The notes beneath the pieces are model-generated. The model was given only the letters and a program-made list of their open reading frames with translations. It made no database searches and was not told the DNA's origin. A program made the position numbers and the translations under genes. A stretch of 63,440 bases of DNA, the filler included, from Kipferlia bialata (Eukaryota), in the NCBI GenBank assembly GCA_003568945.1. It is 6 parts of 5 records of this genome, joined end to end, with 100 filler letters (N's around TTAATTAATTAA, not from the genome) between each part and the next. Parts side by side here need not be neighbours in the genome. Positions count along the whole stretch, not along the records: positions 13,393 to 26,677 come from BDIP01000967.1; 5 more parts are not named here. One strand, 5' to 3'. This document shows, one piece after another, positions 24,841-25,887 of this stretch (its first letter is position 1; each line of letters opens with the position of its first letter).

Positions 24841-25887
24841 ATGAAGATCAAGTATGGTCATAACACCTATAGAGAAGTCAATCTGGCGCAAATACAGGCC
24901 AACTATCAAAACCTCTCAAAGATAAAGCCAGTGATATGTGTCGTCAAGAATAATGCGTACAACCTCGGGCTACTGGAGGTCACAAATGCCCTCATCAGTG
25001 TTGGAGCGTCCATCTTTGCGGTCTTCACTGTTGATGAGGCTATACGTATCAGAGTCAAGTATCCTATGGCCAAAGTGCTAATACTGGGCTATGTCTCCCC
25101 AAATGACATTGACACCGTCTCCAAGCTCAACATCTCTGTCATCGCTTACGACACTGAGCTGCTGGAAAAGTACCTTGAGAGTACAGACAGAGTGCTGCAC
25201 GTCCACGTTAACAGGAACACTGGGATGTCTAGGCTGTCAACCAAGAAGAAGCTATACAAGTTCAAGCATCCTCGGGTGTACACTGAGGGCCTCATGACTC
25301 ACTTCAGCAACACTGGAGACCTTGTCTACTCTGATAGGCAGGCAGAGGAGTTTGACTCCATCAAGAGTGACATCGTGTACAGGCATGCACAAGCTACAGA
25401 TGCTGTGTTCATGTATGATATGAATGTCTCCCATATCCGGCCAGGTATTGGTCTGTATAAGGATTGCATGACGGTTACTAGTGTCGTAGAGAACATTGCG
25501 ACGTATCCTAAGGGGACGCAGATTGGTTATAGTGCTGGGTATACAACAAGGAGGTCAGAGAGGATTGCGGTCATAGGTATAGGTTATGGCTCTGGTTATG
25601 GACGGCACTATAAGGGTCACCCATTTGTCATCATCAATGGCGTGATATGCTTCGTTATAGGCAATGTCTGTATGAACCAGTTGTACGTCTCTGTGCCGTT
25701 CTCGGCCGATATAGCAATAGGGGATGCCGTCGTTGTTCTGGACAATGAGAAGATCACAACCACAATGATGGCTAGCTGGTTTAACACAATCGAGTATGAG
25801 ATATTCATCAGATTTGGCAACAGCAATATACACACCGTCTATGAGAACACCCATAAGGAGTTCATCAACCCACTATTTAGGAAATAG
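24841..25887 (+). CDS. alr: Alanine racemase-family PLP enzyme (fold type III)
   Basis: CVVKNNAYNLG (PLP Lys), NTGMSRL, EGLMTHFS, IRPGIGLY, QIGYS (catalytic Tyr), IGYGSGY, IGNVCMNQ, TIEYEI; start MKIKY after promoter motif. Confidence 0.92.
   Translation: MKIKYGHNTYREVNLAQIQANYQNLSKIKPVICVVKNNAYNLGLLEVTNALISVGASIFAVFTVDEAIRIRVKYPMAKVLILGYVSPNDIDTVSKLNISVIAYDTELLEKYLESTDRVLHVHVNRNTGMSRLSTKKKLYKFKHPRVYTEGLMTHFSNTGDLVYSDRQAEEFDSIKSDIVYRHAQATDAVFMYDMNVSHIRPGIGLYKDCMTVTSVVENIATYPKGTQIGYSAGYTTRRSERIAVIGIGYGSGYGRHYKGHPFVIINGVICFVIGNVCMNQLYVSVPFSADIAIGDAVVVLDNEKITTTMMASWFNTIEYEIFIRFGNSNIHTVYENTHKEFINPLFRK

Follow-up and report, generated by a model that had tools for sequence, protein, structure and literature searches.

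The window analysed here is a stretch of 63,440 nucleotides (nt) from the genome assembly of Kipferlia bialata (GCA_003568945.1), a free-living metamonad, in which six parts are joined by filler. At 24841-25887 (+) it contains a gene for a bacterial-type alanine racemase (Alr family), which is located on a contig (13393-26677, BDIP01000967.1) representing a Polinton-like element. Due to its linkage to viral genes in a single unitig, a promoter motif and codon usage that fit the element, and the long stem of the clade formed by its product, the racemase gene is old viral cargo and neither a chimera nor a contaminant. The chances are about even for the preferred reading, namely that a bacterial-type Alr-family gene has long been part of a Polinton-like virus (PLV) and gives a predicted pyridoxal 5'-phosphate (PLP) enzyme likely turning D- into L-alanine from bacterial prey.

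The Racemase Gene and Its Family

The racemase gene extends from ATG to TAG without an internal stop and encodes 348 amino acids (aa). A longer open reading frame (ORF) from 24682 (401 aa) was rejected as gene start, since it overlaps the opposite gene and since the promoter motif described below ends 10 nt before 24841. The product is matched by Pfam Ala_racemase_N (PF01168; aa 13-207, E=1.5e-34, 120 bits) and Ala_racemase_C (PF00842; aa 210-327, E=1.1e-29, 103 bits), both far over their cut-offs, and by the curated equivalog model TIGR00492 alr with 186.6 bits (cut-off 168). Second among the curated models comes the VanT-G catalytic subunit with 156 bits, below its cut-off of 460, and no decarboxylase match was obtained in the Pfam and curated family library scans. 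All 49 solved-structure sequences matching the protein are racemases or engineered forms of racemases, the best match being S. aureus Alr1 (PDB 3oo2, E=2.5e-38). Lys39 and Tyr265 of solved Alr align with K36 in the motif VVKNNAY (nt 24946) and Y230 in IGYS (nt 25528), in agreement with the earlier note on this DNA, which had described a full-length fold-type III racemase with PLP lysine and catalytic tyrosine. The position of the substrate gate is occupied by Y319 (nt 25795). GC content (0.459) and GC3 (0.585) of the gene both equal those of the element.

The Polinton-Like Element and the Join

The element contig comprises 13,285 bp (GC 0.459) with 14 intron-free ORFs that cover 90% of it; it is incomplete at both ends and free of microsatellites. 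Its major capsid protein gene (18594-19919, +; 441 aa) is assigned by predicted structure. The ESM Atlas model of the protein (predicted template modelling score, pTM, 0.74) matched the PF21738 double-jelly-roll (DJR)-like cluster with a template modelling (TM) score of 0.74 over 384 residues, a match between predicted models on both sides. Sputnik-type virophage clusters reached TM 0.72-0.75 by query, are longer (525-591 aa), and ranked below the DJR-like cluster. A search of 1.84 billion representatives returned four proteins, the capsid itself and three metagenome relatives at 25-33%.

Head-to-head with the capsid gene lies a gene for a probable A32-like packaging ATPase (17808-18512, -; 234 aa) with Walker A GTAGSGKS and Walker B LIIFDD, for which P-loop families match and Pox_A32 remained under its cut-off of 22.8 (17.8 bits, E=0.0024). 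The adjacent gene (16527-17822, +; recorded gene call starting at 16584) encodes a tyrosine recombinase, likely the integrase, with Atlas feature scores of 0.96-0.97 to Preplasmiviricota clusters, one of which is named Tyr recombinase and one of which shows PF00589 in 16% of its members. Family library scans revealed no protein-primed DNA polymerase B (pPolB), helicase/primase, or retroviral-type integrase among the 14 ORFs of the contig, which is cut at both ends. According to PMC12220804, PLV genomes range from ~14 to 40 kb. Judged by its modelled capsid, the element is a PLV in the broad sense, with a capsid too divergent to place; section 7 of bioRxiv 10.64898/2026.06.19.733378 reports such capsids from other metamonad elements.

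The earlier note had placed the racemase in a Polinton-like element, and the capsid of predicted double-jelly-roll fold in the same contig bears this out. Its further statement that viral genes flank the racemase on both sides stands as far as the context is concerned and does not stand for the two neighbours as such, since the left one (24303-24758) is without a library match and the right one (26114-26599) is an orphan.

Joins and depth were derived from a public DNA run with a separate assembly. In the latter, one unitig of 10,861 nt (depth 469) matches 15832-26652 with 0 differences and 0 gaps and spans ATPase, capsid, and racemase genes; thus the join is not chimeric, a chimeric assembly being one of the refutations named in the earlier note. 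In a presumed RNA run, 29 of 30 bins were covered for a host stretch vs 0 of 30 bins for the element, an uncovered part being no proof.

Promoter Motif and Codon Usage

The motif AATTATAT-N13-TATATA is located at 24804-24830, 10 nt ahead of the racemase ATG. It lies in an AT-rich spacer of 82 nt (24759-24840) between divergent genes, a putative promoter region which also contains a TATATA for the opposite gene. Four further pairs of the element's genes have the same back-to-back layout, and all five pairs are separated by AT-rich spacers of 50-85 nt with the motif on both strands. A looser pattern, AATT-N14-19-TATATA-[ACT]1-2-C, which was derived from these same upstream regions, occurs in 11 copies in the contig, every copy just 5' of a start codon, vs 0.03 copies expected (200 dinucleotide-model simulations, maximum 1). 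The other five contigs of the window (~50 kb) contain one copy. TATATA itself is situated 7-22 nt ahead of the ATG in 14 of 14 genes as well as before the cut 15th start at 26663. The promoter that the earlier note had regarded as the element's own is recovered in the looser form; the exact spacing was found before just one other gene (20821). A possible terminator is a T- or A-run such as TTTTTTATGC (13735-13750, 26610-26620), close to which several genes of the element end.

The codon score of the racemase gene (0.076) falls among those of the 13 other element genes (0.032-0.171). Only 1 of 84 bacterial alr genes, and 0 of 30 GC-matched ones, scored as high.

Relatives and Origin of the Racemase

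In the homologue search, 24 of 2,011 candidates passed. Following the racemase itself (P0001 in the trees), the closest relatives were a metagenome fragment on a 2,580-bp contig (P0004, 82%) and the partial K. bialata protein GCA63235.1 on a 5,507-bp contig (P0003, 71%); bacteria came next with at most 30%, and no bacterial protein exceeded 31% identity among the matches listed. A fourth member of this group was found neither in a profile search (6,043 of 7,999 scored; the best 120) nor in a GTDB scan (the best 80 of 480).

The broad tree contained all 225 rows, from which a fragment of the racemase itself and two near-duplicates were dropped. The careful tree comprised 46 hand-picked rows, with five long-branched bacterial rows left out. 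P0001, P0003, and P0004 form a clade with support 100/100 and a stem of 2.59 changes per column, in which P0001 and P0004 pair (99/92) and P0003 branches outside the pair. The sister group of the clade differs by tree (support 19 in the quick tree, 51/39 in the careful tree). A FastTree join of the clade with P0016 was rejected and flagged as long branches meeting. In case of the loop R200-Y230, a length of 31 residues was observed for the clade and for 19 Margulisbacteria-like rows, 35 residues for one row, and 38-55 residues for 202 of the 225 rows; the Margulisbacteria-like group is enriched, two of its members having been part of the search profile. A forced join of the clade with these rows gave a p-AU of 0.447 in the approximately unbiased (AU) test, which neither rejects nor shows kinship. 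The phylogeny against bacterial Alr proposed in the earlier note thus yields a three-member clade far from the sampled bacteria and leaves the bacterial donor without a place. The Margulisbacteria-like Alr proteins (P0005, P0031, and P0033-P0049) lack a loop of 12-14 residues that nearly all other bacterial rows possess.

Among phage records, 18 of 50,697 matched Alr, and the 2 inspected lie in bacterial housekeeping operons. In both of these 'Bacteriophage sp.' records (L085:6001-7143 and L086:6001-6942), alr is situated between an NAD(P)H-hydrate repair gene and a CorC-domain gene, and both look like host chromosome. Of the IMG/VR stretches, 4 of 60 matched Alr, at 27%; the one inspected is chromosome beside a prophage integrase.

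Several observations weigh against a viral gene of long standing. A locus of the racemase clade was found in 0 of 13 IMG/VR stretches and in 0 of 378 and 0 of 130 JGI metagenome stretches; for capsid loci the searches gave 0 of 35 and 0 of 71, and for ATPase loci 0 of 2, so that no relative was seen beside a capsid gene. The DNA run behind the unitig is possibly the source of the window itself, so that it serves as a check of the assembly rather than as a second sample. Furthermore, two host Kelch genes obtained codon scores of 0.026 and 0.115; therefore, the codon test separates the racemase gene from bacteria, not from the host.

P0003 could be the host gene from which the viral copy originated, a host capture from the virus, or a gene of a second element. 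The first of these possibilities leads to the alternative that the host lineage took the gene from a bacterium, that P0003 is its nuclear copy, and that the virus captured a duplicate, possibly as a silent passenger. P0003 was recorded from a eukaryote, on its 5,507-bp contig, and branches outside the pair of P0001 and P0004, the codon usage of the racemase agrees with that of host genes no less than with that of element genes, and fornicates reportedly acquired prey-digesting genes from bacteria. On the other hand, P0001 is nearer to the protein of a separate metagenome than to P0003 and is therefore not a recent copy of the latter; the reading frame is intact and the element's motif is retained. 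In addition, a 770-nt unitig of the same sample (depth 377), ~90% like 14466-14577 (also 13899-13922) in the gene at 14195-14842, shows by its sequence a presumable second related element or remnant, which could carry P0003. Taken together, we consider host capture possible and rather unlikely.

At its N-terminus, P0003 is extended by a stretch in which Ser, Thr, and Arg are frequent. Judged from its sequence, this protein may have a wider substrate range (Ala at the gate, see below) or a targeting peptide (N-terminal extension). Returning to viral cargo, it is tempting to speculate, albeit with considerable doubt, that a PLV lineage of anaerobic bacterivorous fornicates has long carried its own bacterial-type racemase family, with P0004 derived from a sister virus and P0003 passed to the host or to a second element, where loss of the gate tyrosine would have widened the range of substrates.

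Active Site and Substrate

Residue roles were read off an alignment with solved S. aureus Alr, combined with the assignments given in parts of PMC3146814, PMC3245724, and PMC3485190. The catalytic pair is kept (K39=K36, Y265'=Y230). Further equivalences are Y43=Y40, R138=R131, H168=H154, H200=H182, S204=T186, R219=R200, G221=G202, I222=I203, Y284'=Y249, R290'=R255, M312'=M278, I352=I317, and Y354=Y319. The PLP contacts Tyr43, Arg136, His166, Ser204, Arg219, Gly221, and Tyr354 correspond to Y40, R131, H154, T186, R200, G202, and Y319, and Thr at the Ser204 position also occurs in 36 of 222 bacterial rows. The entryway layers retain the three tyrosines (Tyr265', Tyr354, Tyr284'), Ile352, and Arg290'; they are altered at Ala170 (S156) and Arg309' (N275; Asn in 104 of 222 rows), and the Asp171 position is ambiguous (G159/D160). 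Between P0001 and P0003, 38 of the 42 columns conserved in bacteria are identical vs 107 of 171 variable columns (Fisher p=3.5e-4); conserved columns are thus far more often identical within the clade, and therefore the protein is constrained along the enzyme's own pattern.

From its sequence, the gene is predicted to give a working PLP enzyme. The protein would quite probably form the usual head-to-tail dimer with PLP at K36 and two-base K36/Y230' racemisation. If the enzyme is active, alanine would rather likely be the main substrate, because the tyrosine gate (Y230'/Y319) is kept; according to PMC4542195, Tyr354 restricts Alr-type enzymes to alanine.

These predictions are weakened by several findings. 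Of the 42 sites conserved in at least 90% of the 222 bacterial rows, 13 are changed in the racemase. Second-shell changes comprise A40->N37, K129->N124, N203->A185, D286->S251, and D313->N279, and the new residues are scarce in bacteria (Asn at the K129 site in 3 of 222 rows, Asn at the D313 site in 5, and Ser at the D286 site in 0). The anion site that positions Arg136 (carbamyl-Lys129, or Asn plus chloride) shows N124 here. A functional bacterial Alr with chloride bound at this site provides a precedent for Lys129->Asn, as described in the set PMC3146814 / PMC3245724 / PMC3485190; the Thr reported to accompany Asn129 is Cys in this racemase. An alignment-free fold of the racemase reached a predicted local distance difference test (pLDDT) score of 29.6, which provides no structure model of the protein. 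The changed conserved sites are nearly all alike in P0003 (11 of 13 with the identical residue, F62/Y apart).

With respect to these changes, an active viral cargo whose substrate is a different amino acid or more than one (serine, lysine, or a broad range), or that runs mainly from L to D for an osmolyte or for signals to prey and surface bacteria, has to be considered. The clade-wide changes at 13 of 42 conserved sites and the long stem argue for it, as do the rank of the VanT-G catalytic subunit as second curated model and the Ala of P0003 at the Tyr354 gate, which is also the residue of the broad-specificity racemase Bar in the description available for Bar and Lyr; these typically carry Asn beside Arg136. 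P0001 and P0004 both keep the alanine-restricting tyrosine. For VanT serine racemases, P0001 has Y319 and not Asn at the gate, and its scores (156 vs a cut-off of 460, 92 vs 900) stay low. Compared to Bar, Lyr, and BsrV, P0001 differs at the gate (Y319) and by L132 in place of the Asn next to Arg136, and P0003 shares the Ala at the gate but has Leu beside the Arg. A changed substrate or direction is therefore improbable to a considerable degree, and alanine stays our preferred assignment.

Provirus or Episome

For the seven host records listed from this run, depths are 473-530 (median 504), which results in an element/host ratio of 0.93, contig depth being a poor measure of copy number according to the warning of the tool. 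This ratio fits about one copy per host genome. Due to the host-like depth and the encoded recombinase, it is quite likely that the element is a provirus, present at this copy number and inserted by its own tyrosine recombinase. What speaks against integration is that neither a host junction nor a terminal repeat was seen in the contig or in the read-graph unitigs. The contig itself, cut at both ends and without a visible terminal repeat over its 13.3 kb, is bounded by 100-nt spacers, and the host-like DNA on either side belongs to separate contigs.

A unitig of 2,980 nt (depth 491) starts with 13694-13723 and ends with 26623-26652, the left-end piece 13393-13447 occurs at a doubled depth of 983, and for 13447-13639 there are two diverged versions, equal in both length and depth. 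Therefore, both ends of the element are repeated, which would fit a circle, two sister elements with ends in common, or inverted repeats with a 2.9-kb arm missing. The linked 2,980-nt unitig may contain a sister element or the replication gene that is missing.

If the element were an episome at low copy number, or a virus free in the culture, this would account for the lack of an observed host junction, and the unitig linking both ends as well as the doubled depth at 13393-13447 are expected for a circle or an inverted-repeat genome. A single provirus gives a depth within 10% of that of host DNA, which a free virus would show only by coincidence, and a tyrosine recombinase is encoded; the non-integrated state is thus unlikely. 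A bacterial gene of the xenic culture mis-joined to a viral contig, for which the normally bacterial occurrence of Alr and the draft state of the assembly could be adduced, is very improbable given the unbranched unitig over capsid, ATPase, and racemase, the GC content shared with the contig, the promoter motif in place, and the lack of a bacterial match above 31% identity among those listed.

Proposed Role

For viral cargo acting on alanine, the following course is conceivable. Host RNA polymerase would read the racemase gene from the TATA-like motif, and the product would dimerise, bind PLP, and equilibrate D- and L-alanine. Peptidoglycan and teichoic acid of digested prey would release D-alanine. 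An anaerobe is poorly served by D-amino-acid oxidase, which depends on oxygen. Through racemisation, carbon and nitrogen would be regained, with L-alanine entering protein synthesis and pyruvate metabolism, and D-alanine would be kept out of translation during virion production, or the provirus-carrying host would benefit. Since the protist is without peptidoglycan, use on the D-alanine of prey appears likeliest. That the benefit is D-to-L salvage in a probably anaerobic bacterivore is plausible, with a chance somewhat below even; it counts against this role that it is inferred from the lifestyle of the host only.

If the speculation on a PLV lineage with its own racemase family is correct, small DNA viruses would both bring an enzyme of bacterial cell-wall synthesis to a protist and enable the latter to use prey D-amino acids. 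That the element devotes one kilobase to such a constrained bacterial enzyme with its own promoter motif suggests selection on host nutrition and offers a testable case of how phagotrophic anaerobes handle D-amino acids of their prey. Moreover, the natural enzyme pair with Tyr vs Ala at the substrate gate allows a direct comparison of specificity.

Further Genes of the Element and Other Parts of the Window

The left neighbour of the racemase (24303-24758, -; 151 aa) is a candidate cysteine (maturation) protease with the pattern H..D..Q..CGYY, and a second candidate cysteine protease (14896-15486, +; 196 aa) shows H..D..Q..CGFY; neither has a library match. The H..D..Q..C pattern of both is one that we take to be cysteine-protease-like, and the two match each other weakly (23 aa, pairwise E=0.001). 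Based on its size and its position beside the capsid gene, 19958-20740 (-; 260 aa; without library match) is a candidate minor capsid (penton) protein gene. The right neighbour of the racemase, the orphan ORF at 26114-26599 (+; 161 aa), is preceded by the element's motif at 26076, and 0 of 12 candidate relatives of it passed. A further copy of the motif with an ATG at 26663 (26626-26677, +) is cut by the contig end; the element thus continues past the contig.

The remaining ORFs are 13768-14136 (-; 122 aa), with a winged-helix-like C-terminus (RFX_DNA_binding E=0.00095, under the cut-off), 14195-14842 (-; 215 aa), to part of which the 770-nt unitig corresponds, and, as ORF calls, 15464-16450 (-; 328 aa) with a Pro-Ala repeat, 20821-21996 (+; 391 aa), 22043-22819 (+; 258 aa) with a hydrophobic segment near the N-terminus, and 22888-24285 (+; 465 aa). 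The left end (13393-13767) is interrupted by stops in each of the six frames.

The other contigs of the window carry Kelch genes, weaker matches to BIG2_C and CAF1, and microsatellites. Two similar Kelch-repeat genes are located in tandem on a host contig (7302-8264 and 9352-10320). The spacers at 13293-13392, 26678-26777, 40056-40155, 53423-53522, and 57360-57459 are 100-nt N stretches with a TTAATTAATTAA core. The first four contigs are each ~13.3 kb in length, an order that resembles size sorting rather than linkage.

Comparison with Known Systems

PLVs are thought to carry little beyond genes for capsid, replication, and methylation. A full-text search, outside which most subscription papers and the supplements of the 2026 PLV preprint lie, revealed no PLV with an alanine racemase and nothing on Kipferlia together with polinton or racemase; the IMG/VR and JGI metagenome searches also yielded none, so that the earlier note's remark that no PLV with this cargo was known still applies. 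The word 'racemase' is absent from the main texts of three PLV surveys and from the supplements of PMC10120064, one of which is stored incomplete; these supplements name Kipferlia solely among the screened assemblies. The racemase is thus a real and apparently undescribed cargo, shown in one element, of an unplaced PLV lineage, and it adds such a lineage from a Carpediemonas-like host.

With bacterial Alr (EC 5.1.1.1), the protein shares the two-domain layout, the Lys/Tyr pair, the PLP contacts, and the tyrosine gate; it differs by an identity of ~30%, the changes at 13 of 42 conserved sites, the shorter loop following RPG, the viral promoter, and the lack of a cell wall to serve. The Alr proteins resembling those of Ca. 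Margulisbacteria (P0005 group, 19 rows) include the best bacterial match in a single-sequence search (125 bits, next 97) and are the only bacterial rows with the element's 31-residue loop, but identity is 30% and the trees do not join them to the clade.

Similar to the metamonad PLVs (Bellas et al., PMC10120064; bioRxiv 10.64898/2026.06.19.733378), the element is compact and combines a DJR capsid recognised by structure only with a probable A32-like ATPase and a tyrosine recombinase. The published Metamonada PLV group derives from parabasalids and Streblomastix (PMC10120064); in contrast, the three distant relatives of the present capsid are all metagenomic, and no replication gene was found in the contig, which is cut at both ends. 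Compared to Maverick/Polinton elements, pPolB and a retroviral-type integrase were not found in the incomplete contig, which encodes a tyrosine recombinase instead.

Fold-type III PLP enzymes are common in large eukaryotic viruses in the form of ornithine/arginine decarboxylases, as stated in a passage of PMC9992855; unlike these, the present protein contains Ala_racemase_C and has no decarboxylase match. An entry 'Alanine racemase' for a eukaryotic DNA virus, ORF 92 of the Yellowstone Lake giant virus, is found in one table of PMC4602308 and belongs to a metagenomic giant virus, not to a small PLV. A precedent is the ferredoxin of cryptophyte PLVs, which PMC12220804 presents as metabolic cargo of endogenous PLVs with a proposed gain in host fitness; enzyme and host are different there, and 21 elements carry that cargo vs one element here.

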